Positions 45,066 to 62,289 of a stretch of 64,000 bases of DNA are shown here, one piece after another. The notes beneath the pieces are model-generated. The model worked only from the letters and a program-made list of their open reading frames with translations, was not told the DNA's origin and did no database searches. The first letter of the stretch is position 1, and each line of letters starts with the position of its first letter. A program made the position numbers and the translations under genes. The stretch comes from Candidatus Aenigmatarchaeota archaeon (lineage in GTDB: Archaea; Aenigmatarchaeota; Aenigmatarchaeia; Aenigmatarchaeales; Aenigmatarchaeaceae): the NCBI GenBank assembly GCA_043802485.1, contig JAZDKZ010000004.1, positions 24,157-88,156 of the forward strand. The letters run 5' to 3'.

Positions 45066-45071
45066 AATAAC

Positions 45072-45796: not shown

Positions 45797-45852
45797 GCTT
45801 CAACCTTTTGATATTTAAATCGCGGGACAATTTAAACCATAGCTGACTGGAA

Positions 45853-45908: not shown

Positions 45909-45969
45909 TTAAAGCCTGGATTTTCTAGTTAAACTTTTATCGTTTGCAGCATCATATAATCTTGATTGT

Positions 45970-47238: not shown

Positions 47239-47263
47239 ATCCCACTTCTTCCATAGTTTAGAT

Positions 47264-48871
47264 ATGAAGAAACTATCATTTTGTTTTATTTTATTTATCT
47301 CGTTCTTTTTGTTTTCCTCTATCGTTCTTGCTGACGGTGGTGCATATATACGTTCCACCTTTGAAACAGATGTGTGGCTACCTATTGGTCAAGACGAGCA
47401 AGTGTCTGTAATAACCTACGAGAACGGGAAGGAAAGCATGATTATTTCTATTGAGGCAGAATTGGAAAGCGGTGAAATAGCCTGGATATTCCCTATCCCA
47501 TCAAAGCCAGAGCAAACGAACATTGATATTGTGAAAGAATTCCCAGAGTTCAGCGGCTATGAAGTCAAAAGTAAGGTTGGCTACGAGTTCAACAGAGGTT
47601 ATCCGGCGTTTTACCTATCCCAAGTATATCCAATATTCTTAACTCTTTTCTCGGGTTATAGCATGGGGGCAGCTGGTGGAGGGCTGATAGACGGCGCCTT
47701 GCAAGATATAGCCGTTGAAATACACGAACATATAGAATACGGAGGGCTAACAACAGAGCTCGTAACTACAAAAGACGAAACAGAGCTTTATGCCTATATG
47801 CAACAAAAAAATCTAGACCTACCACCCGAATCGCTTTCAATAATAGAGGAGTACGTTGGCAAGGATTATTCATTCATTGTCTCTTGGATATCAGACGGCT
47901 TGGCTTATAGGGATGCGACCGGCGGGAATGTTTTGGGGGTAAAGGCAACATTTCCAACTAATGACATATTTTATCCTTTGAGGCTGACTTCAATATACGA
48001 CGAAACGAAAATACCGATGACAATTTATGTGTCTGGCCATGTCAGCCCGAATGTTTTCAGCGAGATAGATGATTACACCGATGTAAAATATTATGGCGGT
48101 GACAAGGATTACACAAAAATTAATATAAATTCAGAATCGAGATTCTTTGTAGATGATCTTTGGATGAGCAGGTCTGTACCGATAGATATACTAATAGCTG
48201 ACATCATACTGATTAGCCCTACGGCATTCTTGGTTTTTGTCTTTGTAACAGTTTCTATTCTGTCAAGCATCATCGCAGGGCTTATTATCTATAAGGATGA
48301 ATTTTCCTTGAAGAAGTTTGCCTTGCTCGGGCTTTCAAACCTGTTAAGTATTGTCGGGTTCTCAATAGCATCTATTCTAGCATTTAAATCTGAAAGGAAA
48401 GGCGACTTGAAACTGATCCTGTTGTCTTTTGGCCTGTCGGTTGCTCTTCTTGTTTCTGCGTTCATGCTGTCAAATGCTTTGCTATTAATCGTCTCAATAA
48501 TTGCTTTTGCTGTTTCGTTCATTGTCATGATTTCGGTATTGGGAAGTAAAGCGGTGTCATTGTTCATACTTATCTTTAGCATATTGTTCTTAACCATTTC
48601 ATTCCTTGTGAGTTCCCTGATTCTTTCGGCTTATCCCCACACCACAGTAATGTCTGGTGTTATGTCCTTTGAATATGGCAGACATTATGGATGCATGCAG
48701 TATCTAAGGAATAATTGTTTGGACTCGGATGAGATACTGTTACAGATAGACGCAAATCAAAACGGACGTATGGACAGCGGCGACACCCTACAAGCATTAG
48801 CTGAAATTTATTATGGCTGCGATCCTGGCGTAGAGGAATGTGTAAGACAACTTTGTGGTTGCAACGTTTAG
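47264..48871 (+). CDS. DUF2330-like extracellular domain plus multi-TM membrane protein
   Basis: Signal peptide ADGG, WIFPIPSKP, FYPLRLTS, about 5 TM helices, Cys-rich tail. Confidence 0.7.
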   Translation: MKKLSFCFILFISFFLFSSIVLADGGAYIRSTFETDVWLPIGQDEQVSVITYENGKESMIISIEAELESGEIAWIFPIPSKPEQTNIDIVKEFPEFSGYEVKSKVGYEFNRGYPAFYLSQVYPIFLTLFSGYSMGAAGGGLIDGALQDIAVEIHEHIEYGGLTTELVTTKDETELYAYMQQKNLDLPPESLSIIEEYVGKDYSFIVSWISDGLAYRDATGGNVLGVKATFPTNDIFYPLRLTSIYDETKIPMTIYVSGHVSPNVFSEIDDYTDVKYYGGDKDYTKININSESRFFVDDLWMSRSVPIDILIADIILISPTAFLVFVFVTVSILSSIIAGLIIYKDEFSLKKFALLGLSNLLSIVGFSIASILAFKSERKGDLKLILLSFGLSVALLVSAFMLSNALLLIVSIIAFAVSFIVMISVLGSKAVSLFILIFSILFLTISFLVSSLILSAYPHTTVMSGVMSFEYGRHYGCMQYLRNNCLDSDEILLQIDANQNGRMDSGDTLQALAEIYYGCDPGVEECVRQLCGCNV

Positions 48872-48930
48872 ATATGGTCTCATTGACATTCTACGGCGGC
48901 GTCAAGAAAAAATGGGTTTAAATTGTTTTG
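48866..48930 (+). repeat. Gene-start repeat R3 plus downstream TATA
   Basis: GTTTAGATATGGTCTCATTGACATTCTACGGCGGCGTCAAG (MVSLTFYGGVK). Confidence 0.95.
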
Positions 48931-48945
48931 TTTCGAATTCTTCTT

Positions 48946-49191
48946 ATGCCAGAACTGGATGAAAAATGTCTAATTATGTTAGAAACCGTATATCAAGGCG
49001 AAAAGCCCGTCACTTTGGGACTTTTGTATGGAAGAACAAAACCAACGACCTACCCAACAATGATGAAAAGACTGGATGAAATGCAAGAGGCTGAGCTGAT
49101 AGAAGTGAAACGACTAGATTGTATGACGAAAAAATATGAGATAACAGACTTTGGGATTGAAGTTATGGAAGAGTTAATGAAAAAGTCTTAG
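48946..49191 (+). CDS. Winged-helix protein
   Basis: TYPTMMKRLDEMQEAELIE...KKYEITDFG. Confidence 0.7.
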   Translation: MPELDEKCLIMLETVYQGEKPVTLGLLYGRTKPTTYPTMMKRLDEMQEAELIEVKRLDCMTKKYEITDFGIEVMEELMKKS

Positions 49192-49255
49192 TTTTTTCCT
49201 TTACCCTCTGTTCTCTGAAAATGGGTTTAAATGTTTTTGTGTTCTTTAACTAAAT

Positions 49256-49480
49256 ATGGCTGAAGAAATTAAAAGAGTTCTCAAATACTGTTCAAATTCT
49301 CCTATGGACAAACGTTTCTGTATTTCGATGAGTAGATTATCAGAGATTATAGAAGAGTTAAAGGAATTAGATTACAAAAGTCTTGAAGACGTCTATAATT
49401 ATGCTAAAAATCTTGATCTTCCTGAAGAATTTAAAGAGGAATTAAAATTTGAATATGAAAAAAGAGGGTTTAAATCCTGA
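49256..49480 (+). CDS. Hypothetical protein
   Basis: 74 aa with own TATA. Confidence 0.55.
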   Translation: MAEEIKRVLKYCSNSPMDKRFCISMSRLSEIIEELKELDYKSLEDVYNYAKNLDLPEEFKEELKFEYEKRGFKS

Positions 49481-49492
49481 TTCTTCTATAAT

Positions 49493-49897
49493 TCAATCCA
49501 AATCTATGGTAATGTTCTTGGGTGTCATCATTTCATAAACATCAGAGAAGAATTTTTCTTCTTTTTTTCTGGGGAGTTCTGCCCCATCATGTCCATAACC
49601 ACAAGAACGGGATACTTCCTCCAGAATAGACGTGCTTATTTCCTGCACAGAAACATACTCTTCTTGACATTCAAACAATCCTTTAACGAACTCTGTCTTG
49701 CCATCTTTCTCTATTGAAAGAGCACAACTAATTATTTTTCTCTTCATAGTGCTTTTCGCAGTTCCTCTCCTAGCAAATCCATAGTTCACACAACAGCTAT
49801 CAATGATGTCAGTCATGCTCATTTTCTTTCTTTTTTGGATTTCCTTAAAGATGTAATTAGTCATTTCTTTAGTGGAAGGGTAAGACGATCCTTTCAT
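49493..49897 (-). CDS. Hypothetical wHTH-like protein, paralog of 54397-54666
   Basis: Shared motif D[IV]ID...N[YF]G.A.RG..KS..KR.I. Confidence 0.65.
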   Translation of the reverse strand: MKGSSYPSTKEMTNYIFKEIQKRKKMSMTDIIDSCCVNYGFARRGTAKSTMKRKIISCALSIEKDGKTEFVKGLFECQEEYVSVQEISTSILEEVSRSCGYGHDGAELPRKKEEKFFSDVYEMMTPKNITIDLD

Positions 49898-49968
49898 AAA
49901 TAAAACAAGGTTGATAATTTATTTAAGCTTGAAATGTGTTTAAATTATTTTATGCTTTATTTCATAGT

Positions 49969-50241
49969 ATGAACAAGAATTTAAAATGGGGCTTGTCCTC
50001 TAATCAGAAGAAAGCTTTCGAAGAGATTTCTCGCAGTATAGGTGATGAGTATGATCACGGTTTGGAAGATGCCAAGGGGGTAGGAATCCATGGGGATGAA
50101 CTCAAGACTTATATGACGCTGTTCGTTCAAAATAAACTTTACATGTTTGAAAACGATAAATATACGATAACAGGTAGGGGACTAATTCTCTTTAACCAGC
50201 TTATGACTAATTCCCTGACAAAGGGTAGATACTGTTATTAG
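49969..50241 (+). CDS. Hypothetical protein (wHTH-like, YTITGRG)
   Basis: ATG 29 bp after TTAAA. Confidence 0.55.
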   Translation: MNKNLKWGLSSNQKKAFEEISRSIGDEYDHGLEDAKGVGIHGDELKTYMTLFVQNKLYMFENDKYTITGRGLILFNQLMTNSLTKGRYCY

Positions 50242-50256
50242 TTTTTATTCTGGTTT

Positions 50257-50308
50257 TTCCATAGTTTAGATATGGTCTCGTTAACCTTCTACGGCGGCGT
50301 CAAGGAAA
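50257..50308 (+). repeat. Gene-start repeat R4
   Basis: 37 nt from ATG 50272 identical to 58241-58277. Confidence 0.96.
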
Positions 50309-50314
50309 GGGGAC

Positions 50315-50770
50315 TTATTTCTTCTCCAGCCTTGTAAGGCTTTTCATTTTGGGATACATCCTTTTAAGGAACTTCACGACCTTTTCCGCGTAGACCCTGT
50401 CAAGTATGGTCCCGTAGTAGAGCATGCCGTTCCTAAAGTATCTCAGCTGGTCGGCAAACTGTACGTCCTTCTCGTCAAATTCAAGAACCCTCATGTAGGA
50501 CACCTCTGCCTCGTGAGCGCCCTGGCCAGAAGCGTTATAGCCTTCCAGGAGCATCTTGGCCCGCAGCATCTCCATGACTATGTCGTAGCACATCTTCACG
50601 AACAGGTTGGCATTGGAGTCATCAAGTTTAATCTTGACCAGCATCCTGAGAAGGCTTTTGTAGCTGTTCTCGGATTCCTTCAGCAGGAAATCTGCCCTTG
50701 ACTTGTCCCTGCTCTGCTTCTTGACAACACCCTCTTTTATAAATCCTTCGAATTTTCTTATTGCCCTCAT
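50315..50770 (-). CDS. HEPN-like protein (toxin partner of MNT)
   Basis: Helical; AHEA and LRYFRNGMLYYG; coupled to MNT gene. Confidence 0.75.
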   Translation of the reverse strand: MRAIRKFEGFIKEGVVKKQSRDKSRADFLLKESENSYKSLLRMLVKIKLDDSNANLFVKMCYDIVMEMLRAKMLLEGYNASGQGAHEAEVSYMRVLEFDEKDVQFADQLRYFRNGMLYYGTILDRVYAEKVVKFLKRMYPKMKSLTRLEKK

Positions 50771-51309
50771 AGCTCGACACCGCCTGATATCACTATGCCG
50801 TTGCACAGATTCTCCCTCAGGTTCTTGTGCACAGACCGGAGCGAATCATAAAAGTTCAGGTTTATTTTTCTTTCCAGCGCCCTTTCATAAGCAGCGAGAT
50901 CGGTTTTCTTGCCTTTTCTGCCGATTACTGCTACATCCACGTCCGAGTTCATCGTGTCCTCCCCTCTCGAGTAGCTCCCAAACAGTATGAGGGTAGCTCC
51001 TGCAAATTCCCTTTCCAAAAAGTCCGCAAGGCCTGTCTCGTATATCAGCATGAGATTGTCCGCGCGTTTCATCTGCATCGCCCTGTGGTCGTCTCTGTTG
51101 AGCTCGACAGACCACCTCTTGGTCGTCTTGTCCTGGCTTGACCTGACCATGCCTTCCATTCCCGGAAGCGACTTCATCACAGCCGGCTGGGAAACGCCCA
51201 GCAGGTTTGCAATCTGCCTTTGGTTGAGAGACGTTCCTGCCTTGACAAAGAGCAGCCTCAATATTTTCTGCTGCAGCACTGTCAGCCTGATTTTGTATAT
51301 ATTAACCAT
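50767..51309 (-). CDS. HTH-fused minimal nucleotidyltransferase (MNT antitoxin)
   Basis: LNQRQIANLLGVSQPAV HTH; LFGSYSRGED...SDVDVAV. Confidence 0.88.
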   Translation of the reverse strand: MVNIYKIRLTVLQQKILRLLFVKAGTSLNQRQIANLLGVSQPAVMKSLPGMEGMVRSSQDKTTKRWSVELNRDDHRAMQMKRADNLMLIYETGLADFLEREFAGATLILFGSYSRGEDTMNSDVDVAVIGRKGKKTDLAAYERALERKINLNFYDSLRSVHKNLRENLCNGIVISGGVEL

Positions 51310-51394
51310 AGTTTATATGTATTAACTTAAGTTTATATATGTTTCTACTTGACTAATTGCGCCATAGAAATATTATAGTTTTGTCACTTCTTCT

Positions 51395-51486
51395 GGTGGT
51401 AAATTTTTATTAGTGGCTCCTCAATTCTTTAGTATGGTATCCCTAACCTTCTACGGCGGCGTTTGGAAATCTGTTTAAATTGTTTT
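51395..51486 (+). repeat. Gene-start repeat R5 with upstream promoter and downstream TATA
   Basis: GGTGGTAAATTTTTATT...TCAATTCTTTAGTATGGTATCCCTAACCTTCTACGGCGGCGTTTGGAAATC. Confidence 0.95.
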
Positions 51487-51504
51487 GTTTTAAATATCTA
51501 ATTT

Positions 51505-51753
51505 ATGAAAGATGGCAAGAAAATGAGTTATAATGATGTTTTAGGGGCTTATGTTGGCAAAAAGGTAACTTTTCGTTTTATGGCGATGAATCTCCAAAAC
51601 ACCCACTCTATGGAAAAAATAGAGGGCCGTCTTTCCAAAGGACCTGTCTATTACACCGTACATGGGGAAAGAGCGGTGATGATGCTTGTTCCCGGCGCCT
51701 CAGGAGAGATAGAAGCAGGGGGCCAAAAATACGATCTTAGAGATTTGGTTTAA
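51505..51753 (+). CDS. Hypothetical protein
   Basis: 82 aa immediately after R5 TATA. Confidence 0.6.
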   Translation: MKDGKKMSYNDVLGAYVGKKVTFRFMAMNLQNTHSMEKIEGRLSKGPVYYTVHGERAVMMLVPGASGEIEAGGQKYDLRDLV

Positions 51754-51901
51754 ACGCGGGGTTTTTATCCTTAAGTTTCCCATGGTTTGAATCGGTTGAT
51801 TCTTGGGCTGATAAGATTGATTGTTTAGAATGGGGATTGTTGGAGCGTTGGTGGCTACTATAAGAATAAAAAGTTTTTTGTACCATTAAATAGTGAGATA
51901 A

Positions 51902-52624
51902 ATGGCCAATGAAAAGAATTTTCAGCCAACGTCTGAAGAGATAGAAAGGTCTTTCAAAGCTCTAGGCAAAGCACTTGACAACAAGACGCCTTTGGAAAAG
52001 TTTTTTTCAGGCTATAAAAGCATAGGGCTTCCTTTTAATTACGGCGACAAGAGTGTCATAACAAGTGTATATGAGATGGGAAGGGGTGTGACAATAGTAA
52101 GAGAAAGGCACATGGCAAGTGGTATGAATCATAGGATGATAAGAAGTGGCAGAAACCCAGAATATAGCAACGAACCATTTTCATGGGATATTTCTAATTA
52201 TTATGTGTTAAATGGAAACAAGTTAGTGATTGATGAAGAAGAGGTCAAGCAAATATTAAAAGACTCGACAGCTATAGACATGCCTGTCATTGAAGTTAGG
52301 AACGAACCCAGGCCGAACACATTGCACAGAAACTTTAATCCCGGGATGATAGTCACCAAAGTAACAGTAGATGAAAAGAATAGTTATAATCCAAGCTATG
52401 ATGAGTTTCATAAAGAAGAAAGGTATATGAGAAGCGAAATAAAATCCAAAGTCAGAAAAACGATCGAAGATGGCAGAAGCACTGGATTTATTGATGTTGA
52501 AAGGGAAGAAAAGCTTTCAAAAGTAACCGAAATTATGTATCCTGGTATGTTCAAAGAGATTTTAGATGAAATGAAACCGGACGAGGACATAACGCATCCT
52601 TTCCGCTCTGTTTTTGGATTTTAA
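51902..52624 (+). CDS. Hypothetical protein
   Basis: 240 aa ORF. Confidence 0.7.
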   Translation: MANEKNFQPTSEEIERSFKALGKALDNKTPLEKFFSGYKSIGLPFNYGDKSVITSVYEMGRGVTIVRERHMASGMNHRMIRSGRNPEYSNEPFSWDISNYYVLNGNKLVIDEEEVKQILKDSTAIDMPVIEVRNEPRPNTLHRNFNPGMIVTKVTVDEKNSYNPSYDEFHKEERYMRSEIKSKVRKTIEDGRSTGFIDVEREEKLSKVTEIMYPGMFKEILDEMKPDEDITHPFRSVFGF

Positions 52625-52643
52625 TTTTTTCTGAACTCATCTA

Positions 52644-52720
52644 GTGGTGAATTTTTATTGCGGTGTTATCAATTCTTTACTATGGTTTCATTAACCTTCT
52701 ACGGCGGTGTCAAGGAGATT
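52644..52720 (+). repeat. Gene-start repeat R6 with full promoter
   Basis: GTGGTGAATTTTTATTGCGGTGTTATCAATTCTTTACTATGGTTTCATTAACCTTCTACGGCGGTGTCAAGGAGATT; MVSLTFYGGVKEI with 5 synonymous changes. Confidence 0.96.
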
Positions 52721-52781
52721 TCGTTAGGTTACTACCGTAAGAATATGGAACGTATTTAAGTCAAATTTTTCCAATTAGATT

Positions 52782-53093
52782 ATGAAACTTTTATTGTCGG
52801 GGTTGTTGACAATGTTTCTGATATCAGGCTGCGTCACGATTCCTAAGAGTTGTCCGATTCTAAACCCTTCATACTGCGAGGTCGACTCGGACTGCATGTG
52901 CTCCACAACACCATGCTTCCTAGGCAACAAGGAGTATTTTGAGAAATGTGTACCTGACAAGTCTGTTCTTGGGTCTTGCCTCGACGCTTGCGGATTTGGA
53001 CCATATGGAATGGAATTCAGATACATCTGTGAAGACAGCCAATGTATAATTGCAACGTTTAACATGACGAATGGTCAGAGAATAAAGTCTTAA
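52782..53093 (+). CDS. Small Cys-rich secreted/lipoprotein
   Basis: ISGC lipobox-like, CEVDSDC, further Cys. Confidence 0.7.
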   Translation: MKLLLSGLLTMFLISGCVTIPKSCPILNPSYCEVDSDCMCSTTPCFLGNKEYFEKCVPDKSVLGSCLDACGFGPYGMEFRYICEDSQCIIATFNMTNGQRIKS

Positions 53094-53096
53094 ATC

Positions 53097-53141
53097 CTGA
53101 CCTTCTACGGCGGCGTCAAGGAAATCTGTTTAAATTGTTTC
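53097..53141 (+). repeat. Gene-start repeat R7 (5'-truncated) plus TATA
   Basis: CTGACCTTCTACGGCGGCGTCAAGGAAATCTGTTTAAATTGTTTT. Confidence 0.94.
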
Positions 53142-53158
53142 TTGTCGATAATCTTAGT

Positions 53159-53671
53159 ATGAGCATGAAAGTCTTGAAATATGTGCGCAAGGAAGGCGGC
53201 CTTGCAAGAGTAAAGGAAGTCAAGAATAGGTCAGGCCGCAATTCTAGAGTATTGAATGAGCTTAAGAGTGACAAGCTGATAAAGCCCATGCGCAGGAGGC
53301 CGTACATGCCCAAAGGCCAGTATGTCGTTATGACTGACGGTGGGTGGGACGCTGCAGAGGAAAAAAGCAGGCCTGGCTCTGCTGTCAAACCGAACAAGTA
53401 CATGCTAAAGATACTGAGCATATACGACAGGAACAAGGACAACACAAGGTTCCGCGTCAAGCTCAACGGAAAGAGCATAAAGGTCACCAGGGAAGAGCAA
53501 GCTTCTCTTGAAGACACGAACTATGTGTTCTCTACCAGAGGCGTATGGAACAAAAACAAGCGCGAGGATCTCACAGAAAAGCAAACTGAAAGCTTTGATG
53601 AAGCAGTAAATTACATGGCCCGCGTGTCCGGAATAGGCAAAGGCAAATACACCACTAAAACCGGGCTGTAG
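53159..53671 (+). CDS. Basic hypothetical protein
   Basis: ATG 29 bp after R7 TATA. Confidence 0.65.
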   Translation: MSMKVLKYVRKEGGLARVKEVKNRSGRNSRVLNELKSDKLIKPMRRRPYMPKGQYVVMTDGGWDAAEEKSRPGSAVKPNKYMLKILSIYDRNKDNTRFRVKLNGKSIKVTREEQASLEDTNYVFSTRGVWNKNKREDLTEKQTESFDEAVNYMARVSGIGKGKYTTKTGL

Positions 53672-53703
53672 TGTTTTTATTCTAGCTTTTTCATATTGAA
53701 ATT

Positions 53704-54288
53704 ATGAAAACTCTAATCCTAATTTTTATCCTAATGGCCTTTGGGATATTTACAGGAGTAATTTCAGACTTTTTTGTTCATGAAATGGGTCACTATACCT
53801 TTGCCTCGATTATCAACAGCTCTGCCATAGAGGGCGTGCGCTTCTACCCGGAAAGCCTGCTGGCAAGCCCCATTGAAAACAAGATACAGACGTTTGCCAG
53901 GGTGAGCTACAAATCATCCATACTCGAATCGTTTGGCTTTCATGGCGGTTTGCTTGTAACCGTCGCTGGCTTCTTGTTCGAGGTTATATTTCTAGTCTCG
54001 CTTGTAGCCCTGGTCAAAAAGCAAAGGCATGGGAGAAGAGGCCTGACAGCCTTCCTGCTAGGGGCATTGCTGGGCGCGTTGATGGGCATAAGCGCCAGCT
54101 GGATCAACGACTTTATCTTTATCTTCTATACCCTGTCTGAAAACACGCTTGTGACTGGGGCAATGATAATTGCGATGCTGCTCACTATGATTTACCTGTC
54201 CGTGCACATCTTCCTCAAGGCCTCGTCCAAATTCTTTGGCGGATTGCTTCCAAGGCGCTTTAGGCGGCGCTCCTCACCCCGACGCTGA
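53704..54288 (+). CDS. M50-like membrane metallopeptidase
   Basis: VHEMGH in TM context, VAGF, ND motif. Confidence 0.7.
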   Translation: MKTLILIFILMAFGIFTGVISDFFVHEMGHYTFASIINSSAIEGVRFYPESLLASPIENKIQTFARVSYKSSILESFGFHGGLLVTVAGFLFEVIFLVSLVALVKKQRHGRRGLTAFLLGALLGALMGISASWINDFIFIFYTLSENTLVTGAMIIAMLLTMIYLSVHIFLKASSKFFGGLLPRRFRRRSSPRR

Positions 54289-54328
54289 CAGAAGTACGGT
54301 TGTTGACCGCACAAACAAATTTTATTTC

Positions 54329-54382
54329 ACGGTCTTATTGACATTCTACGGCGGCGTTTAAAATTAGGATTTAAATTGTTTT
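54329..54382 (+). repeat. Gene-start repeat R8
   Basis: ACGGTCTTATTGACATTCTACGGCGGCGTTTAAAATTAGGATTTAAATTGTTTT. Confidence 0.92.
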
Positions 54383-54396
54383 CTGTTGATTGTTTA

Positions 54397-54666
54397 TTAA
54401 ACATAATCTTGGCCAAGATAGTCTATATGTATCCACACTCCGTTTAAGAATTGTATTTCTCCATCTTTTCTGTGTTTTTCTAAATGGTTAAGTATATCCC
54501 TTTTTTTATCAGATTTATCCTTTCCTCTTGCAGCCAGGCCAAAATTGAATTTATAATTATCAATAACATCGGCTGTTGTCATTCCATTCTCTTTTTGTTG
54601 ATAAATTATTTTAAGAACGTGTCTACTTAATTCTTCTCCGGAAATATGGCTGTCTGCTCGTCCCAT
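54397..54666 (-). CDS. Hypothetical wHTH-like protein, paralog of 49493-49897
   Basis: Start MGRADS; shared motif. Confidence 0.65.
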   Translation of the reverse strand: MGRADSHISGEELSRHVLKIIYQQKENGMTTADVIDNYKFNFGLAARGKDKSDKKRDILNHLEKHRKDGEIQFLNGVWIHIDYLGQDYV

Positions 54667-54732
54667 AAAACAATAAAGAATGCTAAAAAATTTAAGCTTA
54701 AATTTTAAAATTCCCAACTATTCTTTGGTAAT

Positions 54733-54921
54733 ATGGATAATCTTCGAAGAAGAATCGACCCGTGTACAAGCAAGCAGAAAGGCGAATGCGTAATTTTCGG
54801 CGTTGACGGCAACTGCAACAACTGTGACATATACCAATCAAGATTATGGTCAAAAGTGATTGGGTCATTAAGTCCTTACAAATCCGCCAATGAAACTGTG
54901 ATAGAAGGATTGGTTGTTTAG
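54733..54921 (+). CDS. Small Cys-containing protein
   Basis: 62 aa, C..C..CNNC. Confidence 0.5.
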   Translation: MDNLRRRIDPCTSKQKGECVIFGVDGNCNNCDIYQSRLWSKVIGSLSPYKSANETVIEGLVV

Positions 54922-54930
54922 TCCCTTCAT

Positions 54931-54973
54931 TTAACCTTCTACGGCGGCGTTTGGAAATCTGTTTAAATTGTTT
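54931..54973 (+). repeat. Gene-start repeat R9 (5'-truncated) plus TATA
   Basis: 42 nt (54932-54973) identical to R5 51444-51485. Confidence 0.94.
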
Positions 54974-54990
54974 ATTTTCTAATAAAGAAT

Positions 54991-55551
54991 ATGTTTTCAC
55001 TAAATCCATCATTCAGAATAGTCCGCTATAGTCCTATAACTGCAGCTTTTGGTAGTGTGAAGTATCAATTTGATGGTCCGTTTAGTCTCGGGAATTTAAC
55101 CCAAGAAGTAGGAGAGGTTGTAGAAAGCATAGGATATTCTTTAAAGAGGGCTTATGATGTGAAAACAACAATCGAACAACCCAAGATAAACATCTTGTCT
55201 ACTAGAGTAACTCCAATAAGTTCTGAACTTAACAAAAGGGAATTTGATTTAGACCTAAGATATGTCGGCAACCAAGGATTGATGGAAAGGATTAAGACAG
55301 TCTGTACGAAGATGTTTTTGGAGAAAAAGGATAATGCCATATTGACTCGAAACGACAAAAGGGGGTTTTATTTTTTCCACAACCTGAAGGAAAGTTTTGA
55401 TCCCGTATCAACTGGAAACCTGCTGAAAGCAACAGAGTCAATTTTACTTAAAGATGCGGGGCAGAGACTAGAAACTGTCAAATCAGAAATACAGCCCGAT
55501 TATCTAGAAGTTGACATTGAGATAAGGGAATTTAAAAATTACATAGTATGA
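54991..55551 (+). CDS. Hypothetical protein
   Basis: 186 aa, ATG 28 bp after R9 TATA. Confidence 0.65.
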   Translation: MFSLNPSFRIVRYSPITAAFGSVKYQFDGPFSLGNLTQEVGEVVESIGYSLKRAYDVKTTIEQPKINILSTRVTPISSELNKREFDLDLRYVGNQGLMERIKTVCTKMFLEKKDNAILTRNDKRGFYFFHNLKESFDPVSTGNLLKATESILLKDAGQRLETVKSEIQPDYLEVDIEIREFKNYIV

Positions 55552-55628
55552 AATGCTCTTTGATTCAGCACACTTTCTTCTTGCAGACTTTTAAGAATAA
55601 ATAAAATTGGAGCGTTGGTGGATGCTGC

Positions 55629-56294
55629 TTAAACGTTCAATTTTCTTATTATAACAGGCACATGTCTCAAGTCGTTTACAACATAATCTGCGGCATGTCT
55701 CACTTTTTCTGAACCAGGACGGTATGCTATGCTGTGTTCTGCTATTTCAAAGGATTCCAGCTCGTTCTCATGGTCGCCAATCATCACAACGCCTTTGTAT
55801 ACCCCGTTATCGTCGGGCTTTATGCCGAACCTGCTGCATACATCAATCATATTCTGCTTCTTGTCCCACAGAGGAACATTGTTTTTTCCTTTTCCTGTAT
55901 AGTAACCGTTCTCATGAAGCAGGTCGTTGCACTCGCAAAATTTCATATCCAATTCATCTGCTATGTGCCTTGCCGGCGGGTTTGTTCCTGCCGTAATCAG
56001 ACCTACAATCAAACCCATTTCGTTTAGCTCGTGCACAGCCTCCCTTGCGCCGTCCGAGTAGACGGGGGGCAGTACTTTAGTTTCCACTGCTTCAACTGAA
56101 ACGCCTTTCAGAAGGGCACATTCCTTGTCAAACCATTCGTTGTAAAGATGCGGTCTGGGAAGGTAGTATTCGAGCAGTTCTTTGGCCTCATCAAGCATGC
56201 CGGCTGCATAGAGAACAGCGTCCCAGCTGGAACCGTACTTTCCATGGGGGTAGTTGATTGTTGTCCCGTCCATGTCAAAGAAAACCAAAGACAT
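55629..56294 (-). CDS. HAD phosphatase, phosphoserine-phosphatase-like
   Basis: FFDMDGT, SSW, ITAG, K, IGDHENE. Confidence 0.85.
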   Translation of the reverse strand: MSLVFFDMDGTTINYPHGKYGSSWDAVLYAAGMLDEAKELLEYYLPRPHLYNEWFDKECALLKGVSVEAVETKVLPPVYSDGAREAVHELNEMGLIVGLITAGTNPPARHIADELDMKFCECNDLLHENGYYTGKGKNNVPLWDKKQNMIDVCSRFGIKPDDNGVYKGVVMIGDHENELESFEIAEHSIAYRPGSEKVRHAADYVVNDLRHVPVIIRKLNV

Positions 56295-56336
56295 AGAAGA
56301 ATAATGCATCCTAAATCTTAAATTCTGATACTTGCT

Positions 56337-56386
56337 ATTCTTTACTATGGTATCTTTAACCTTCTACGGCGGCGTTTAAAGAGATA
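56337..56386 (+). repeat. Gene-start repeat R10
   Basis: ATGGTATCTTTAACCTTCTACGGCGGCGTT-T-AAAGAGATA (MVSLTFYGGV, +1 nt, KEI). Confidence 0.94.
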
Positions 56387-56441
56387 GATTAAATAACGGG
56401 ATTTTCTATAAGCATAAAAAGTTTTTGTTACAATTTTTAGC

Positions 56442-56654
56442 ATGGACAAAAGCGAAACTTTTCAAAAATACAGGAGCGAGGGCTTGAGAGCAGTATTAGA
56501 CTTGTGCCTTGAAATGGCCAGAGAAAAAGGTATTAAAGATGAGTCCGTTGCCTATGAAACTTTCAGGGAAACGGCAAAAAAATTCATTCCTGATGCTACC
56601 GAGAAGGATGTTGCTAGAACAATAGAGGAATACGAGAAGATGAAGAAAGGATAA
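56442..56654 (+). CDS. Hypothetical protein
   Basis: 70 aa. Confidence 0.6.
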   Translation: MDKSETFQKYRSEGLRAVLDLCLEMAREKGIKDESVAYETFRETAKKFIPDATEKDVARTIEEYEKMKKG

Positions 56655-56768
56655 ATCCTTGTTTTTCTATATTCTCCAAACCACATCTGGCAGAGGATAC
56701 TTCGCAACTTCTGTTTCAGAGCCGCCAAATCAATTTAATTATACAAGCGAATTTATCTTAAGGTTTCT

Positions 56769-56966
56769 ATGAAAAAGTCAAAAAACAGGCAAAAGGCCCT
56801 GTCGCTCTTCTCCAAGGAGGCCATGAAAAGGCTTAGGAAGGACAAGTTCAATGGACGCCTGATCGTCCTGTGGGAAAACGGAATGGTAAAGGACTTTAAC
56901 CTCAGGACGAACTTTAGGTTCTTTGTGGGCAAGGCTAGAGAGGACTTTTTCATGGAAGACTTGTGA
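56769..56966 (+). CDS. Small basic protein (micro-operon gene 1)
   Basis: 65 aa. Confidence 0.6.
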   Translation: MKKSKNRQKALSLFSKEAMKRLRKDKFNGRLIVLWENGMVKDFNLRTNFRFFVGKAREDFFMEDL

Positions 56967-56975
56967 GGTGGTAGT

Positions 56976-57077
56976 ATGCTTGCGCTTAAAAGAAAGGGTT
57001 TCACGGACATGCACACTTTGAACCTATCGGAAGAGTATGAACTGGACCCGAAAGACGCGAACGAGGTGGAGATGTGA
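56976..57077 (+). CDS. 33-aa protein (micro-operon gene 2)
   Basis: SD GAGGTG; MLALKRKGFTDMHTLNLSEEYELDPKDANEVEM. Confidence 0.5.
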   Translation: MLALKRKGFTDMHTLNLSEEYELDPKDANEVEM

Positions 57078-57193
57078 CCATTAAGAAGAAGGTGAGGTTC
57101 ATAAGAAAACAGGTGCTGGACGAGATTTACAAGTACAAGGAAATCGAGAAGAGGAATCTGAAGGACGGATTAGCAAACAGAGGGTTCGGATGA
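57074..57193 (+). CDS. 39-aa protein (micro-operon gene 3)
   Basis: SD GAGGTG, GTGA overlap; MTIKKKVRFIRKQVLDEIYKYKE... Confidence 0.5.
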   Translation: MTIKKKVRFIRKQVLDEIYKYKEIEKRNLKDGLANRGFG

Positions 57194-57402
57194 ACAGGAA
57201 AATGAAATTTCTAAGATATTTGGTAGAAAGGAGAGAGATGTTCGTTCCATTGGACAACATTCCTGGTGGGAACATAGAGACAGCGGAAGCTCTGCTGCGA
57301 GAGGGAATGATAGGAGTGGAGAGACTGGAGAAGTGTATTAATTGCGTGCTATTGATAAGGGGGCACGAACTCATAGAAAGCGCCAAGAAAAAAGAGAATT
57401 GA
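57190..57402 (+). CDS. Small wHTH-like protein (micro-operon gene 4)
   Basis: ATGA overlap, 70 aa. Confidence 0.55.
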   Translation: MNRKMKFLRYLVERREMFVPLDNIPGGNIETAEALLREGMIGVERLEKCINCVLLIRGHELIESAKKKEN

Positions 57403-57451
57403 TTTTACTTCTAACGTCAGACTTTTATTCACGATTATATAAAATTCTAGT

Positions 57452-57490
57452 ATGGTCTCACTCACATTCTACGGCGGCGTTCGAGAAATT
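57452..57490 (+). repeat. Gene-start repeat R11
   Basis: ATGGTCTCACTCACATTCTACGGCGGCGTTCGAGAAATT (MVSLTFYGGVREI). Confidence 0.94.
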
Positions 57491-57509
57491 GTCTCAAGAA
57501 ATTAAATAC

Positions 57510-57833
57510 TCAAAGCGAGGGCACCATCAAAGGTATCTCCGTCTGCTCCCTGTTCGCAAACTTTAGCAGAATAACTATCAGAACAATCTCCTTTCCTGGC
57601 CTCAGGCGTATCTCCGCGTTCTTTATGCTCTTCAGAAGCTTTTTGGTGATCCTTTTCTTGTAGAGCTTTCTGAGCATCTTCGAGACGTCCATTATCTCTA
57701 TGCCGACAATGTTGCCATCGAAAGAATAGTCTATCACAAAGTCGTCCATCTGCATGCTGTCTTTGACCTTCCCGTCCTTGTACAGGAACAGTATGTCGTT
57801 CTCATAGTCATAGTCTATCTTTGCTTCAGCCAT
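57510..57833 (-). CDS. DUF2283-like putative antitoxin
   Basis: IDYDYENDILFL...FVIDYSFDGNIVGIEI. Confidence 0.85.
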   Translation of the reverse strand: MAEAKIDYDYENDILFLYKDGKVKDSMQMDDFVIDYSFDGNIVGIEIMDVSKMLRKLYKKRITKKLLKSIKNAEIRLRPGKEIVLIVILLKFANREQTEIPLMVPSL

Positions 57834-58159
57834 TTTTCATACACCTTCCTTCTCCTTTTGTTCTGGATGTGCGCCGTTACAATATTTATTTTGTCCTTCT
57901 TTATTGATATTATTATCCTCATGTCGTATCTGGACGATTTCTGTAAAAGCATCAGGTATTTGTGGCCCTTTGGCTCAAGGCCCTGGTCCTCAATCAAGAT
58001 TATTGAATCAACGTCTTTTATAGCCTTTAATATCTCGCCTTCATCTATATTTCTTTTTTCCGCCTTGACGCGATAATGGCTGCTAAAATTTATGCTGCCC
58101 CTGGTTATCCTTCTGCTTATTTTCATTGCGTCCTTGTCGCTCAACACGTCCTTCATCAA
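57815..58159 (-). CDS. DUF4258-like putative RNase toxin
   Basis: FSSHYRVKAEKRNI...INIVTAH; overlaps DUF2283 gene. Confidence 0.75.
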   Translation of the reverse strand: MMKDVLSDKDAMKISRRITRGSINFSSHYRVKAEKRNIDEGEILKAIKDVDSIILIEDQGLEPKGHKYLMLLQKSSRYDMRIIISIKKDKINIVTAHIQNKRRRKVYEKWLKQR

Positions 58160-58203
58160 AAGATATATGGTTTCCTGGAATTAAATTGCTGATTCACCCT
58201 TGG

Positions 58204-58240
58204 CGGTGAATTTTTATTGCAGTGTTATCAATTCTCTACT
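58204..58240 (+). promoter_or_regulatory. BRE/TATA promoter of beta-CASP gene (probably leaderless)
   Basis: CGGTGAA-TTTTTATT 23-30 bp before ATG; also retained in R2, R5, R6. Confidence 0.7.
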
Positions 58241-59704
58241 ATGGTCTCGTTAACCTTCTACGGCGGCGTCAAGGAAATCGGGGGCAACAAGATATTACTA
58301 GAAGACGATGGAACCAAAATATTTCTAGATTTTGGCATGAACTTTTCACAGCACGCCAAGTTCTTCACTGAATACATGCCGCCCCGCAAGAACTCGTGCA
58401 TAACGGACATGATGTTCCTGGGCCTATTGCCCAACATCAAAGGATTATACCGCCGCGATTACTGCAAGCACCAGGGCGCGGACCATAAAGAAGAAAATTC
58501 CGTGGATGGCGTCCTGATATCACACGGCCACATCGACCACGTGGGCTATGTCCATTTCCTTAGGAAGGACATACCCGTCCATGTAAGCCATGAAACCAAG
58601 GCGATAATGGAACTGTTTACCAGAACCGGAGCAGGCGGTTTCAGCGAGTTCTGCGACTTTAAACCGAGCTTTGAACTGATACCCGCAAAAACAGGCGGTA
58701 TGAAGAGGCGCGATGCCCGCGACGGAACGGAGAAGAGGGACGTCCGCACCTTCGAGTTCGGCAAAAAGTTCACCATAGGCAATCTGGAGATCGAACCCTA
58801 CCGGGTCGACCATTCCCTGCCCGGCGCGACCGGTTTCATAATCCACACCTCCGCCGGAGCCATAATCTATACAGGCGATCTGCGGTTCCACGGCCGCCAC
58901 AGGGACTGGAGCAACGCCTTTGTCTCGGCCTCGGCTGCGGCCGAGCCCGTGGCCATGATATCGGAAGGCACAAGGATCAAAAAGTCTGACAACAGGACCG
59001 AAGATTATGTCCAGAAGGAGAGCACCGACTGCATCAAAGGCAAAAAGGGCCTGGCCATAGCCAACTTCCCCATAAGGGACACTGAGCGATTATTGACCTT
59101 CTACCAAACAGCCAAGGCCAACCAGCGCAAGCTGGTCATAGAGTACCGGCAGGCCATCCTGCTGGACCTCCTGAAAAAGTGCGGCATTGACGGGCTGCCG
59201 GACTCGAAAGATCCGGAAATAAGGATATTCTACCCCAAAAAGAGCTGGGGTCTGATCGGCAGGAAGGACTTTGACCGGGAGCAGGTGGAAAGGGACTATA
59301 CGTCCTGGGAGAGGACGTACGCCTCGTCGGAGAACGTGATAGACGCCTGCGAGATAAGGGACCATCAGAACGGTTTTGTGATGTTCATGAACTATTTCCA
59401 GCTGAATAATTTGCTTGATTTGAAGCCTGTTTCGGGTAGTGTCCATATTCGAAGCATCTGTGAGCCTTTCTGCGAGGACATGGAGCTGGACCAGAAGCGC
59501 ATTAATAACTGGTTAAGGCTGTTCAAATTGTATCCTGAGAAAAAATTCCACTGCTCCGGGCATGCCACCGGTGACGCGATAGAGGGGATGATCAAAACGG
59601 TTTCGCCAAAGGCGGTGTTCCCCATACACACAGAGTATCCTGGGATTTTCCGGCGTTTCAACAAGTCAAGAATGGTTAAGTATGGGAAGTGCTACGAGAT
59701 TTAA
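58241..59704 (+). CDS. Metallo-beta-lactamase/beta-CASP nuclease (RNase J-like), 487 aa
   Basis: GGVKEIGGN, LDFG, SHGHIDH, VDHS, YTGDLR, EGT, HCSGHA, PIHTE. Confidence 0.92.
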   Translation: MVSLTFYGGVKEIGGNKILLEDDGTKIFLDFGMNFSQHAKFFTEYMPPRKNSCITDMMFLGLLPNIKGLYRRDYCKHQGADHKEENSVDGVLISHGHIDHVGYVHFLRKDIPVHVSHETKAIMELFTRTGAGGFSEFCDFKPSFELIPAKTGGMKRRDARDGTEKRDVRTFEFGKKFTIGNLEIEPYRVDHSLPGATGFIIHTSAGAIIYTGDLRFHGRHRDWSNAFVSASAAAEPVAMISEGTRIKKSDNRTEDYVQKESTDCIKGKKGLAIANFPIRDTERLLTFYQTAKANQRKLVIEYRQAILLDLLKKCGIDGLPDSKDPEIRIFYPKKSWGLIGRKDFDREQVERDYTSWERTYASSENVIDACEIRDHQNGFVMFMNYFQLNNLLDLKPVSGSVHIRSICEPFCEDMELDQKRINNWLRLFKLYPEKKFHCSGHATGDAIEGMIKTVSPKAVFPIHTEYPGIFRRFNKSRMVKYGKCYEI

Positions 59705-59719: not shown

Positions 59720-60091
59720 ATGATTATTATGGACCAGAAAGTTACAGTTGAAGAATTGAAGAAACTTGTAGCAAAGTTTAGAGATGAACGTGAATGGGCA
59801 AAATATCACACTCCTAAGGATCTTGCTGTTTCTATTAGTGTTGAAGCAAACGAGTTGTTAGAACTTTTTCAATGGAAGACAAATGAAGAAGTGGAAGAAT
59901 TATTAAAGAAAAATGAAAAGTATCAAAAGGTCTTGGAAGAATTAGCCGATGTTATGATATACTGTTTGAATCTAGCAGATACAATAGGTGGCGACGTGTC
60001 AGATGCTGTTAAGAAAAAGTTGGAGCATAACGAAAAGAAATATCCTATCGAGAAAATAAAAGGTAATTATAGAAAGTATACGGAGCTATGA
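59720..60091 (+). CDS. MazG-like nucleotide pyrophosphohydrolase
   Basis: REWAKYHTPKDLA..ISVEANELLE..FQW, EELADV, NEKKYP. Confidence 0.92.
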   Translation: MIIMDQKVTVEELKKLVAKFRDEREWAKYHTPKDLAVSISVEANELLELFQWKTNEEVEELLKKNEKYQKVLEELADVMIYCLNLADTIGGDVSDAVKKKLEHNEKKYPIEKIKGNYRKYTEL

Positions 60092-60092
60092 T

Positions 60093-62012
60093 ATGTTAAA
60101 TAGAAGAATACTTTACGACGCTCCACAAAAAGATTTTTTCAAAGATGTTCTAGTAAATAAGTTTGCTGATAAAGTCCAAGAAAGTTTTATTGATCAGAAT
60201 GGATGGGAAAACAAATCTGAATTTAGTTCATGGGTTGATACAGGAAAGACTATTAAAAATCTAATAGAATTAAGTGGATTAGAAAATCTATATCTTTCCT
60301 TTGAATATCAGGTGCCTTACACACAAAAAAGAATAGATTGTTTATTGTTTGGTAAAAATAAAAAAGGAAAAGGTATCATAATTCATATAGAAATGAAACA
60401 ATGGCAAAGTGTTGAAGCTCTTCCTGTAGATGGAAATTTCGTTGAGACGTATGTTGGTGGCAATACAAGAAAGGTAGCACATCCTTCTCAACAAGTAAGA
60501 GGTTATCATAATTATCTAATTGGGTTTGTAGAAATTTTTGAAGAAAATGAAGTGGATTTAATCGGTTGTGCTTATTGTCCTAATTATAATAAAAAAGACG
60601 GTGAAGGTTTGCTTGACGAAAAATACAAAGAAGTTGTTAGCAAGTTTCCTATTTACACAAAAGAAGATATTGAAGTATTAGCTAATAGATTGAAAGACTT
60701 GTTAAGTCAAGAAGATGGTTTTGATATTTTCAACAAATTCATGGAATCACCAATAAAACCTTCTAGAAAACTTTTAGATAATGCATCTAAAGTAATCAAA
60801 AAAGAATCTGATTTTAATTTACTTGATGATCAGATTTTGGCAAGAAATGTTATTATTGACAAAATAAAAAAAGCCGAAAACAAAGGAGAAAATAGTATTA
60901 TCATAGTTAAAGGCGGTCCTGGTACAGGAAAGACTGTTATAGCGCTTCATATATTAGCAGAGTTTGCTGGTCATAAAGAAAAGAAGTATAACATATTTTT
61001 TGCTTCAAGGTCCAAGCCTTTAATCGAGGCAATAAAATATAAGATGGAACGTGGCCAGAAAGTAGGGGAAGTTAATGCTAAAATACTATTCACCAGTTTA
61101 GAATCATATATTCCTCAAAGGGTTGATGAAAATGACCTTGACATTCTGATTGTTGACGAGGCTCATAGAATAGGTGAAAAATCAGGAAACTTTATGACAA
61201 AAAAAGAATACCGTTCAGATATGCCGCAAATAGAACAGTTGATTCGTTGTGCAAAAACCTCTATATTCTTTATTGATAACAAGCAGGTAATTAGGGGCGC
61301 TGAGATCGGTAATACAGAATTAATTAAAGACTTTGCTAAAAATCTGGGAAGGCAAATAGAAGAAGTTGAATTGACTTCTCAGTTTAGATGCAACGGTTCT
61401 GATAATTATCTGGATTGGTTGGAATACGTCCTCGGTCATTCTAAAAGAAAAATTATTTTAAAGAGGGAAGATAATTTCGATTTCCGAATAATCGATTCTC
61501 CTGAAAAATTATATGAAATTATAAAGGAGAAAAATTCTCAAAAAGGAATGACTGCTAGACTTGTTGCTGGTTATTGTTGGTCTTGGTCTACGAAAACGGA
61601 TAGTAATGGTGATTTGATAAAAGACGTTAAAATCGGGGACTTTAGTATGCCTTGGGAAACCCATACAGGATTAAAGCCGCCCAAAGGTTATGTAAGGTGG
61701 TATGAATGGGCATACAAACCAGAAGGGATAAAACAAATTGGTTGCATATACACGGCGCAAGGTTTTGAATTTGATTATATTGGTGTGATTGTAGGTCCTG
61801 ACTTAAAATATGACGCTGAAAATGATCGTTTGGTTACAGACATTGATGGAATCGCAGATCCGGCTTTAAGAAAGAAGAAAGATAGAGACAAGTTTGATGA
61901 ATATGTAAGAAATATCTACAGAGTCTTAATGTCAAGAGGTCTAAAGGGCTGTTATGTCTACTTTGTGGATAAAGAAGTCGAGAAATTCTTCAGAAAGAGG
62001 ATAGCTGATTAA
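60093..62012 (+). CDS. DUF2075 / Schlafen-group-3-like nuclease-helicase
   Basis: EY..P..RID..IEMKQW nuclease; GGPGTGKT, DEAHR, SQFRC, TAQGFE, YRVLMSRG. Confidence 0.9.
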   Translation: MLNRRILYDAPQKDFFKDVLVNKFADKVQESFIDQNGWENKSEFSSWVDTGKTIKNLIELSGLENLYLSFEYQVPYTQKRIDCLLFGKNKKGKGIIIHIEMKQWQSVEALPVDGNFVETYVGGNTRKVAHPSQQVRGYHNYLIGFVEIFEENEVDLIGCAYCPNYNKKDGEGLLDEKYKEVVSKFPIYTKEDIEVLANRLKDLLSQEDGFDIFNKFMESPIKPSRKLLDNASKVIKKESDFNLLDDQILARNVIIDKIKKAENKGENSIIIVKGGPGTGKTVIALHILAEFAGHKEKKYNIFFASRSKPLIEAIKYKMERGQKVGEVNAKILFTSLESYIPQRVDENDLDILIVDEAHRIGEKSGNFMTKKEYRSDMPQIEQLIRCAKTSIFFIDNKQVIRGAEIGNTELIKDFAKNLGRQIEEVELTSQFRCNGSDNYLDWLEYVLGHSKRKIILKREDNFDFRIIDSPEKLYEIIKEKNSQKGMTARLVAGYCWSWSTKTDSNGDLIKDVKIGDFSMPWETHTGLKPPKGYVRWYEWAYKPEGIKQIGCIYTAQGFEFDYIGVIVGPDLKYDAENDRLVTDIDGIADPALRKKKDRDKFDEYVRNIYRVLMSRGLKGCYVYFVDKEVEKFFRKRIAD

Positions 62013-62176
62013 ATTTGCGAAGTATCAAAATCTCTAACTGTTAACTCCAAGTCTTTTATTAGCTTTAGTATTTTTTCTTTTTCGTTAAAACTTAGGACTA
62101 CCCCTTCTTGAAGCAAGTAGTAAAATTCATTACACATTTTTTCAAGTTTATCTATCATGTCTTTGTTATATTCCAT
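62009..62176 (-). CDS. Possible small protein (55 aa)
   Basis: Manual translation MEYNKDMIDKLEKMCNEF... Confidence 0.35.
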   Translation of the reverse strand: MEYNKDMIDKLEKMCNEFYYLLQEGVVLSFNEKEKILKLIKDLELTVRDFDTSQI

Positions 62177-62289
62177 ATTTTTATTAAATTTTCAATCAAC
62201 AAGTTCATTATTCAATACCTTTAGTGGTAAAGACAAACAATCTTTATGATAGACTATATTTTATATACAAACGAATATCACCTTTTAAT

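Follow-up and report, generated by a model that had tools for sequence, protein, structure and literature searches.

The analysed stretch of 64,000 nucleotides (the window) forms the end of contig C4 of a Candidatus Aenigmatarchaeota archaeon, whose 769-kb assembly (G000) is 89% complete and whose gene content and size are of the DPANN type. In this window, twelve copies of the start of one gene, encoding an RNase J-like β-CASP nuclease of the metallo-β-lactamase (MBL) fold, stand in tandem with eleven cargo modules between them. The feature is genuine, is specific to the family and recurs from genome to genome; it probably arose as circular modules were inserted one after another, by site-specific recombination, into an attachment site that forms the 5′ end of the nuclease gene. 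Relatives of this archaeon are designated G001, G002 and so on, and L-numbers denote loci in other genomes.

An exact 11-mer, TTCTACGGCGG, the core, occurs twelve times between window positions 45042 and 58256, on the + strand only, against a chance expectation of 0.002 in these 13.2 kb; the two further occurrences in the 769-kb genome lie in unrelated contexts. The twelve copies comprise the first 10–13 codons of the nuclease gene, and all are direct repeats upstream of this one gene. No array of starts was found at any other gene of G000. The initial annotation had rightly recognized the twelve copies; R1 (core at 45042) and R2 (core at 45885) precede the range it gave, 48874..58279. The sites and the target gene are as follows.

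45027..45065, + strand: R1, a displaced start (ATG, S3F, V10A, stop at codon 11); core 45042-45052.
45853..45908, + strand: R2, promoter A (TATA-like) joined to codon 2 through a deletion of ~22 nt, with no ATG; core 45885-45895.
48874..48912, + strand: R3, MVSLTFYGGVK without a TATA element of its own, after the stop of the DUF2330 gene; core 48889-48899.
50238..50310, + strand: R4, promoter and start, 38 nt identical to the live gene; core 50287-50297.
51394..51472, + strand: R5, promoter A and MVSLTFYGGV, with a 1-nt deletion in the right half; core 51449-51459.
52642..52720, + strand: R6, the promoter A nearest to the live one, followed by MVSLTFYGGVKEI, wholly synonymous; core 52697-52707.
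53088..53126, + strand: R7, a TATA-like box joined to codon 4, the right half being identical to the live gene through codon 13; core 53103-53113.
54329..54358, + strand: R8, with ATG changed to ACG and S3L; core 54344-54354.
54922..54975, + strand: R9, without codons 1-3, its right half equal to that of R5 over 28 nt; core 54937-54947.
56313..56385, + strand: R10, promoter and MVSLTFYGGV, with a 1-nt insertion after codon 10; core 56362-56372.
57418..57490, + strand: R11, promoter and MVSLTFYGGVREI; core 57467-57477.
58201..58279, + strand: live site, promoter A and ATG at 58241; core 58256-58266, with the proposed 7-bp overlap at 58258-58264.
58241..59704, + strand: target gene, a 487-aa MBL-fold β-CASP nuclease, RNase J-like, with Lactamase_B and RMMBL domains.

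R3, R4, R5, R6, R10 and R11 all encode MVSLTFYGGV, as had been noted from the sequence, and their 18 differences from the live gene (3, 0, 4, 3, 3 and 5, respectively) are without exception synonymous. These represent 11 distinct variants, a pattern with P ~2e-7 under random change. Replacements do occur in R1, R2 and R8, as also described, and the 11-bp core is the same in all twelve copies, wobble positions included. Around it the copies are eroded: codons 1–3 are lost in R7 and R9, several right halves carry 1-nt indels, and likeness to the gene stops at about codon 12–13 in most copies (at codon 10 in R8). We take the left halves to have diverged synonymously because each once served as the live start. 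This agrees with the earlier proposal that the copies were once functional starts, to which the right halves add codons of other nuclease alleles: the distal copy of G008 reads LLQD, as in G001 and G004, with LLED in its own live gene. Internal nuclease remnants were not found in the arrays, and whole-gene tandem duplicates were thus not seen. A correlation between left-half and right-half similarity (r = −0.47) is confounded by intact left halves and shared cargo promoters and was not used as evidence. The upstream promoter motif is not specific to the sites, many genes scoring alike.

The core is constrained at the level of DNA. Within the window copies, minority bases are found at 19 of 44 four-fold positions of Val2, Ser3, Thr5 and Val10 and at none of the 36 wobble positions of Phe6, Tyr7 and Gly8 (P 1.6e-6); restricted to four-fold sites the count is 1/24 (P 6e-4), and since the copies are related, these P values are overstated. 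Replacement sites in the flanks have changed in 7 of 74 cases, compared with 0 of 121 in the core (Fisher P 0.0009). A profile scan at 5 bits over window positions 36–64 kb revealed no hidden copy with a broken core, the broken copy of G003 scoring 21.9 bits. The same wobbles are more conserved than others in the live genes of the family, where TTC, TAC and GGC are used at the three codons in 10, 8 and 7 of 11 genes, as against 31/99, 9/30 and 34/153 at other conserved Phe, Tyr and Gly columns.

An account by codon bias and shared descent, or by an assembly artefact, is hardly credible and is largely refuted. The copies are indeed related, and TTC, TAC and GGC are the commonest codons of the genome (0.61, 0.51 and 0.41); the starts of G004 and G010, however, keep TTC TAC GGC in front of gene bodies that use TTC at 5% and GGC at 4%. 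TTC TAC is read in all five family genomes that have both a live gene and copies (1.0 expected), in 3 of 6 family orthologues without extra copies (0.6 expected) and in 11 of 63 orthologues from outside the family (13.8 expected). Ordinary codon bias is rejected because family starts defy their own codon use and outside genes show no excess. The initial annotation had named equal invariance in orthologues lacking arrays as a counter-case, and here the picture is mixed, half of the family orthologues without copies reading TTC TAC GGC against their own codon use and outsiders showing no excess; we tentatively read the former as empty sites.

How far the constraint extends can be narrowed down. 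The invariant wobbles are core positions 3, 6 and 9; in the best dyad these mark both ends and the midpoint of the 7-bp spacer, and the wobbles directly outside this 7-mer (Thr5 and Gly9) vary. Judged from these alignments, only C3–C9 of the core (CTACGGC, 7 bp) is provably constrained as DNA, the other core positions being also under amino-acid constraint, so that the proposed DNA-level constraint stands against codon bias but not for the full 11 bp. The dyad that had been described around the core (TTGAC-N13-GTCAA in R3; AAC-N13-GTT in R5, R9 and R10) is literally present but weak, and is not significant alone. Its centring on the core is the one notable property (P ~0.01 for 7/11 at a fixed centre), and CTACGGC is the centre of the best dyad.

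Comparison with relatives places the array in a wider context. Extra starts lie upstream of the gene in 4 of the 10 gene-bearing family relatives (two each in G001 and G008, one each in G017 and G010), and none was found in the 0.3–19 kb of upstream sequence of the other six. One copy each is present in G002 and G003, where the nuclease gene was not found. G240, a member of another family, has two copies bordering an MNT nucleotidyltransferase pair of opposite orientation, and no nuclease gene was found in its assembly (65% complete). Among 79 distinct starts from outside the family (54 of them with at least 5 kb of upstream sequence) there were 0 copies. The pair containing a 188-aa gene, the MNT pair and a 186-aa gene occur in reverse order in G017, on the same strand relative to the nuclease, and therefore represent independent insertions and not an inversion; the strand of the DUF2283 gene differs between G000 and G017. 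Left halves track the upstream cargo: in G000 and again in G017, promoter A comes after the MNT pair and after the 188-aa gene. Right halves track the downstream cargo: the 74-aa gene of Module 3 lies directly behind the site in G002, and in G008 and G017 this cargo is a zinc-finger gene.

Variation is also seen at the strain level, in assembled contigs from three public runs of two studies, which covered all 30 bins and may include the source sample; a further run, X4, has hardly any coverage of the stretch. R1, R6 and R8 are each bridged by single contigs with 0 differences (the runs may include the source), which together with the recurrence of arrays in relatives speaks against an assembly artefact. 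Population variants include an intact R5-type start on the R9 module, a form of Module 1 with an R5-type promoter at its end, and a partner gene of Module 4 that has diverged (48 differences in 640 nt) and starts at the R4 ATG behind other DNA. The left half of R11 joins two other cargoes, one of which is the G002 layout, giving three different right sides altogether. At 88% likeness, some of these variants may correspond to related species.

In the mechanism we favour, the 5′ end of the nuclease gene would act as the attachment site (attB), and each circular module would consist of a right half, cargo and a left half, with one site copy each. The left half would supply a leaderless TATA promoter and codons 1–5. 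Strands would be exchanged within the 7-bp overlap CTACGGC by a site-specific enzyme, most likely a tyrosine recombinase, and insertion would hand the gene the promoter and start of the module; the gene would stay intact and the old start would be displaced upstream. Repeated Campbell-type insertions would build the array, presumably growing from the gene end, and displaced halves would erode by deletion and point change with the core kept. The recombinase would lie outside the array and act in trans, or be absent from the assembly. Direct repeats, an intact gene, synonymous left halves, faster decay of right halves and a retained core would all result from repeated circle insertion at the core. 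Agreeing with this, the target open reading frame (ORF) is intact (487 aa), promoter A accompanies modules upstream of it in two genomes, and the starts are kept although the gene bodies fall into five clades. PMC10111431 describes att sites as having an identity block of 7 bp or more in common, with attP as a rule supplying a replacement sequence for the target gene. The conservation pattern found here fits a 7-bp overlap. Such an overlap is typical of lambda-type tyrosine recombinases, and strand exchange by tyrosine recombinases requires identity in a 6–8 bp overlap.

That the core persists even in copies whose start codon is gone suggests current or recent use of the sites. The core might instead be a regulator or RNA binding site at the start of the transcript, the copies having arisen by local duplication and cargo capture with no site-specific recombination. 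Its position is 15–26 nt into a transcript that is probably leaderless, and several of the cargo genes code for helix-turn-helix (HTH) proteins; we nevertheless strongly doubt this reading, which does not account for perfect cores in R2, R7, R8 and R9 despite lost promoter spacing or ATG, or for the shuffling of module order between genomes.

Several observations weigh against site-specific insertion of circular modules. The families PF00589, PF00239, PF07508, PF01867, PF02371, PF01797 and PF00078 gave 0 matches each in the 89%-complete assembly of G000, in which no tyrosine, serine, IS110, Y1, Cas1 or reverse transcriptase enzyme was found. G001 has no PF00589 match and G008 a sub-threshold match only, and no site was found beside any of 30 family integrase loci. 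No core-precise excision joint or circle was found among the contigs of the three runs, such contigs dropping rare forms. The core itself is not wholly invariant outside the window: in the arrays of G008 and G017 the live gene and a copy disagree at the Gly8 wobble, the copy of G010 reads TAT, that of G003 has decayed, and two G>A changes are present in the core of one population contig. The arms of the dyad match at 4–7 of 11 positions, about as with free placement in random 61-mers. Right halves also keep codons (up to codon 16–22 in relatives), which a plain cassette cycle leaves unexplained, and the 11-bp repeat around the DUF2330 ORF and the mosaic live start point to some exchange outside the core. 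The codon-keeping right halves suggest that the modules descend from larger elements with the whole gene that were later eroded, an origin that no internal gene remnant backs.

Some of these points bear on other mechanisms. Without a dedicated recombinase, circles or incoming DNA could have been inserted Campbell-style through 40–70 bp of promoter-plus-start homology, by RadA or by microhomology joining, with the core identical as the shortest perfect match that recombination needs. This is consistent with the failure to find a recombinase in G000, the 11-bp repeat at the ATG bordering the DUF2330 ORF, a live start in which an R6-like promoter stands before an R4-like coding part, and right-hand homology that ends anywhere from codon 10 to codon 22. 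It is, however, unlikely: it gives no reason for genes of five clades to retain identical bases in defiance of codon bias, or for a single gene in the genome to have an array, and DprA was not found in the 89%-complete G000.

The right halves also invite a cut-and-copy scheme, in which a sequence-specific or RNA-guided nuclease would cut near the core and repair would copy cargo and a new start from a donor, leaving the whole old start (both halves, one allele) upstream. In its favour, codons persist in the left and the right halves, R4 is the same as the live allele on either side, and the right ends vary as after resection; an HNH-like ORF, recognized by eye, lies between the HAD and nuclease genes in L091. 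Yet derived right halves are shared with the cargo promoter across modules and genomes (R5, R9, R7 and a G001 copy, G001a; G002 with the 74-aa gene), the intact target in each copy would be re-cut, and no such nuclease was identified in G000. We regard this scheme as decidedly unlikely.

Insertion by a recombinase acting in trans directs attention to candidate enzymes. Tyrosine recombinases are present in 14 of 20 family relatives, and profiles built from the integrases of relatives detected in G000 only a 71-aa remnant. This integrase N-terminal remnant lies directly behind tRNA-Glu on contig C6, near 229871 on the − strand. The closest homologue of the nuclease (L018, 78% identical) has, 1.5 kb upstream, a 279-aa tyrosine recombinase that was considered as a candidate and is not supported. 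Close matches to this enzyme occur in 3 of 371 genomes, G000 not being among them, and viral contigs have none; the loci inspected in G017 and G037 showed no site. Viral contigs had no relative of the nuclease, and of their 10 pattern matches 0 were at a gene start.

Topoisomerase IB is a relative of tyrosine recombinases. A eukaryote-type topoisomerase IB gene (PF01028, PF02919, PF14370) is encoded at window positions 35011-36753 on the + strand, and the enzyme occurs in 29 of 371 genomes of the phylum. That it performs the exchanges is very improbable. The gene lies 8 kb from R1, falls inside the HAD-nuclease island in G017 and is found in the copy-bearing G000, G003, G008 and G017, but it was not found in the equally copy-bearing G001, G002, G010 and G240, and 25 genomes of two other families have the enzyme with none matching the start pattern.

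Among known systems, SXT/R391 elements line up in tandem at a single position within the 5′ end of prfC (PMC5812530), and the array resembles them in targeting the 5′ end of a protein gene, in its tandem organization and in its single site. Those elements, however, are tens of kb long, carry their own integrase and form arrays described there as unstable, whereas here 11 modules of 0.4–3 kb, none with a recombinase, occupy an archaeal host and a target that is itself accessory. As in the integrative elements of PMC10111431, a replacement sequence keeps the target gene working, which is here read from the intact ORF. The direct att-like repeats lie inside the gene with an identity block of 11 bp in 12/12 sites, longer than the 7 bp taken as a minimum. 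An element-borne integrase beside the site, a hallmark of genomic islands, was found neither in the 11 modules nor in the G000 genome. ICESt1-related islands are said to show further tandem accretion at a gene-embedded attB.

In the tycheposon islands of Prochlorococcus, new elements push older ones inward and partial target copies lie scattered (10.1101/2020.12.28.424599); scattered partial target copies and a streamlined genome, and probably accretion, are found here as well. Tycheposons, as presented there, target tRNA genes and carry integrases or fragments of them. Unlike these, the target here is a promoter with start codons, no integrase or integrase fragment was found within the 11 modules, and every core is intact.

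Archaeal integrons and clusters of attC sites lacking integrases (CALINs), also reported in Aenigmatarchaeota, are arrays of small cassettes whose integrase is sometimes absent (10.1101/2022.02.06.479319). Small cassettes in variable order, rich in toxin-antitoxin genes and genes of unknown function, are common to both; unlike in integrons, the sites are gene starts, most modules have their own promoters, and genes lie on either strand. The bottom strands of all 12 sites (91 nt) fold at z −1.78 to +0.83 without a common attC-like hairpin, and for IntI the search of G000 gave 0 PF00589 matches, with the 71-aa remnant alone from the family-built profile. Acinetobacter pdif/XerCD modules, according to PMC13141974, are recombinase-free cargo moved in trans, often toxin-antitoxin genes, and identical spacers favour their recombination. 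Recombinase-free cargo between short sites is thus a shared trait, but pdif sites as described there contain a spacer of 6 bp and for the most part point in alternating directions, and here 12/12 are direct repeats in coding sequence. The best dyad with a 6-bp spacer averages 4.5/11 matches, the best dyads having odd spacers (7–13 bp), and no Xer was found in G000. On these sequence measures the array fits neither an integron, with no attC fold and no IntI found, nor a dif module, with its direct orientation and no 6-bp-spacer dyad. For a casposon or CRISPR-type duplication, Cas1 (PF01867) had 0 matches in G000, and IS110 bridge recombinase, serine recombinase, Y1 transposase and retroelement enzymes were likewise not found in this incomplete genome.

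A search of titles and abstract starts found no description of gene-start arrays at a β-CASP gene; supplements and most subscription papers were outside its scope, and the TIGER/Islander island tables or the archaeal-integron supplement could hold this locus. What would be new is tandem site-specific accretion with a recombinase kept out of the array. Little is known of the gain and shuffling of accessory genes in DPANN archaea with genomes below 1 Mb, and the locus offers a precise site (a 7-bp core with defined halves), modules common to several genera and an ordered insertion record. It is possible, albeit doubtful, that the array belongs to an active integron-like cassette system of DPANN archaea, neither attC nor dif, in which the promoter and initial codons of an accessory β-CASP nuclease gene serve as the recombination site; recombinase-free cassettes would pass among genera, each insertion re-wiring the nuclease promoter, through an enzyme acting in trans that may be of an unrecognized kind. 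Were the modules still mobile without an integrase of their own, they would add one more cassette system to integrons and dif modules, and a novel short-site recombinase would have to be the missing enzyme. Were they eroded remains of larger elements, the locus would be an unusually clean case of tandem accretion, with coding sequence fixed by DNA function.

The nuclease is RNase J-like, yet scores far below the TIGR00649 cut-off. Its gene is present in 10 of 20 family relatives and in 0 of 20 other genomes of the order, and the family copies split into five clades intermixed with genes from other phyla. It is an accessory gene because of this patchy distribution and mixing, and its sequence relationships indicate horizontal exchange. 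The distance from the nuclease start to the divergent HAD hydrolase gene ranges from 0.5 to 18 kb in family relatives. The cargo modules measure 406–3004 bp, with 34–48% GC compared with 52% for the nuclease gene, and encode an MNT pair, a DUF4258/DUF2283 pair, HTH proteins, HAD and DUF2330 proteins and genes without known function. The modules and the bordering genes are listed below.

40104..40778, − strand: HAD hydrolase, the far border of the variable region in most family relatives.
45053..45884, − strand: Module 1, a 188-aa ORF (45230-45796; faint PADLOC PDC-M21B match, E 6e-4) and a 53-aa ORF (45072-45233); a 70% identical gene pair occurs in G008 and G017.
45896..48888, + strand: Module 2, a 422-aa coiled-coil-like ORF (45970-47238) and a DUF2330 membrane protein (47264-48871), the latter bordered by an 11-bp direct repeat ending in ATG (47256-47266, 48866-48876).
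48900..50286: Module 3, an 81-aa winged-HTH-like ORF, a 74-aa ORF, a 134-aa ORF (− strand) and a 90-aa winged-HTH-like ORF; 34% GC.
50298..51448, − strand: Module 4, an MNT nucleotidyltransferase (50767-51309) and a 151-aa partner (50315-50770), HEPN-like by context and a faint PDC-M05B match; it terminates in promoter A, likewise in G017, and lies between two copies in G240.
51460..52696, + strand: Module 5, 82-aa and 240-aa ORFs with no function assigned.
52708..53102, + strand: Module 6, a 103-aa Cys-rich ORF with its own TATA-like box.
53114..54343, + strand: Module 7, a 170-aa ORF and a 194-aa membrane protein.
54355..54936: Module 8, an 82-aa ORF (− strand), a paralogue of the 134-aa ORF of Module 3, and a 62-aa ORF (+ strand); 34% GC.
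54948..56361: Module 9, a 186-aa ORF (+ strand; 48% identity to its G017 counterpart) and a HAD hydrolase (55629-56309, − strand).
56373..57466, + strand: Module 10, 70-, 65- and 70-aa ORFs, with an orphan promoter at 56651.
57478..58255, − strand: Module 11, a DUF4258 (57815-58159) and DUF2283 (57510-57833) pair, after which the promoter A predicted to drive the live gene is located.
59729..64000, + strand: downstream defence-type genes, a MazG-like gene and two SLFN-g3 helicases, ended by the contig border; the second helicase matches PADLOC PDC-S41 (E 2e-251).

In G008 and G009, where the nuclease falls into other clades, the MazG-SLFN pair is likewise found 3′ of it. In Module 2, the DUF2330 ORF stands behind a promoter resembling those of the nuclease starts, as if inserted at the R3 start codon. 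Behind R1 and R4, the 3′ ends of two unrelated convergent genes (45070-45103 and 50313-50346) are 79% identical and share a short palindrome, which suggests cargo exchange inside one module frame. TATA-like elements without an evident gene occur at window positions 39431, 43158, 49470 and 56651, at the ends of cargo genes; these are possibly left halves whose start was deleted.

The MNT pair of G240 lies between its two copies at L065:1480-2700, beside a gene that looks GTPase-like by eye. In G017 (L026:17793-18047), a zinc-finger ORF continues in frame from the displaced start and so acquires a promoter and a start codon; a similar protein of G001 has a faint MqsA match. A gene of G016 (L032:7094-9409) combines the family start with a very divergent body of at least 772 aa, part of which resembles, by eye, an upstream ORF remnant and may be an intein. 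Finally, a second RpoK/Rpb6 gene is located at window positions 43726-43905 on the + strand, with 62% identity to the copy on contig C6; such a gene is also present in the G002 and G003 islands.

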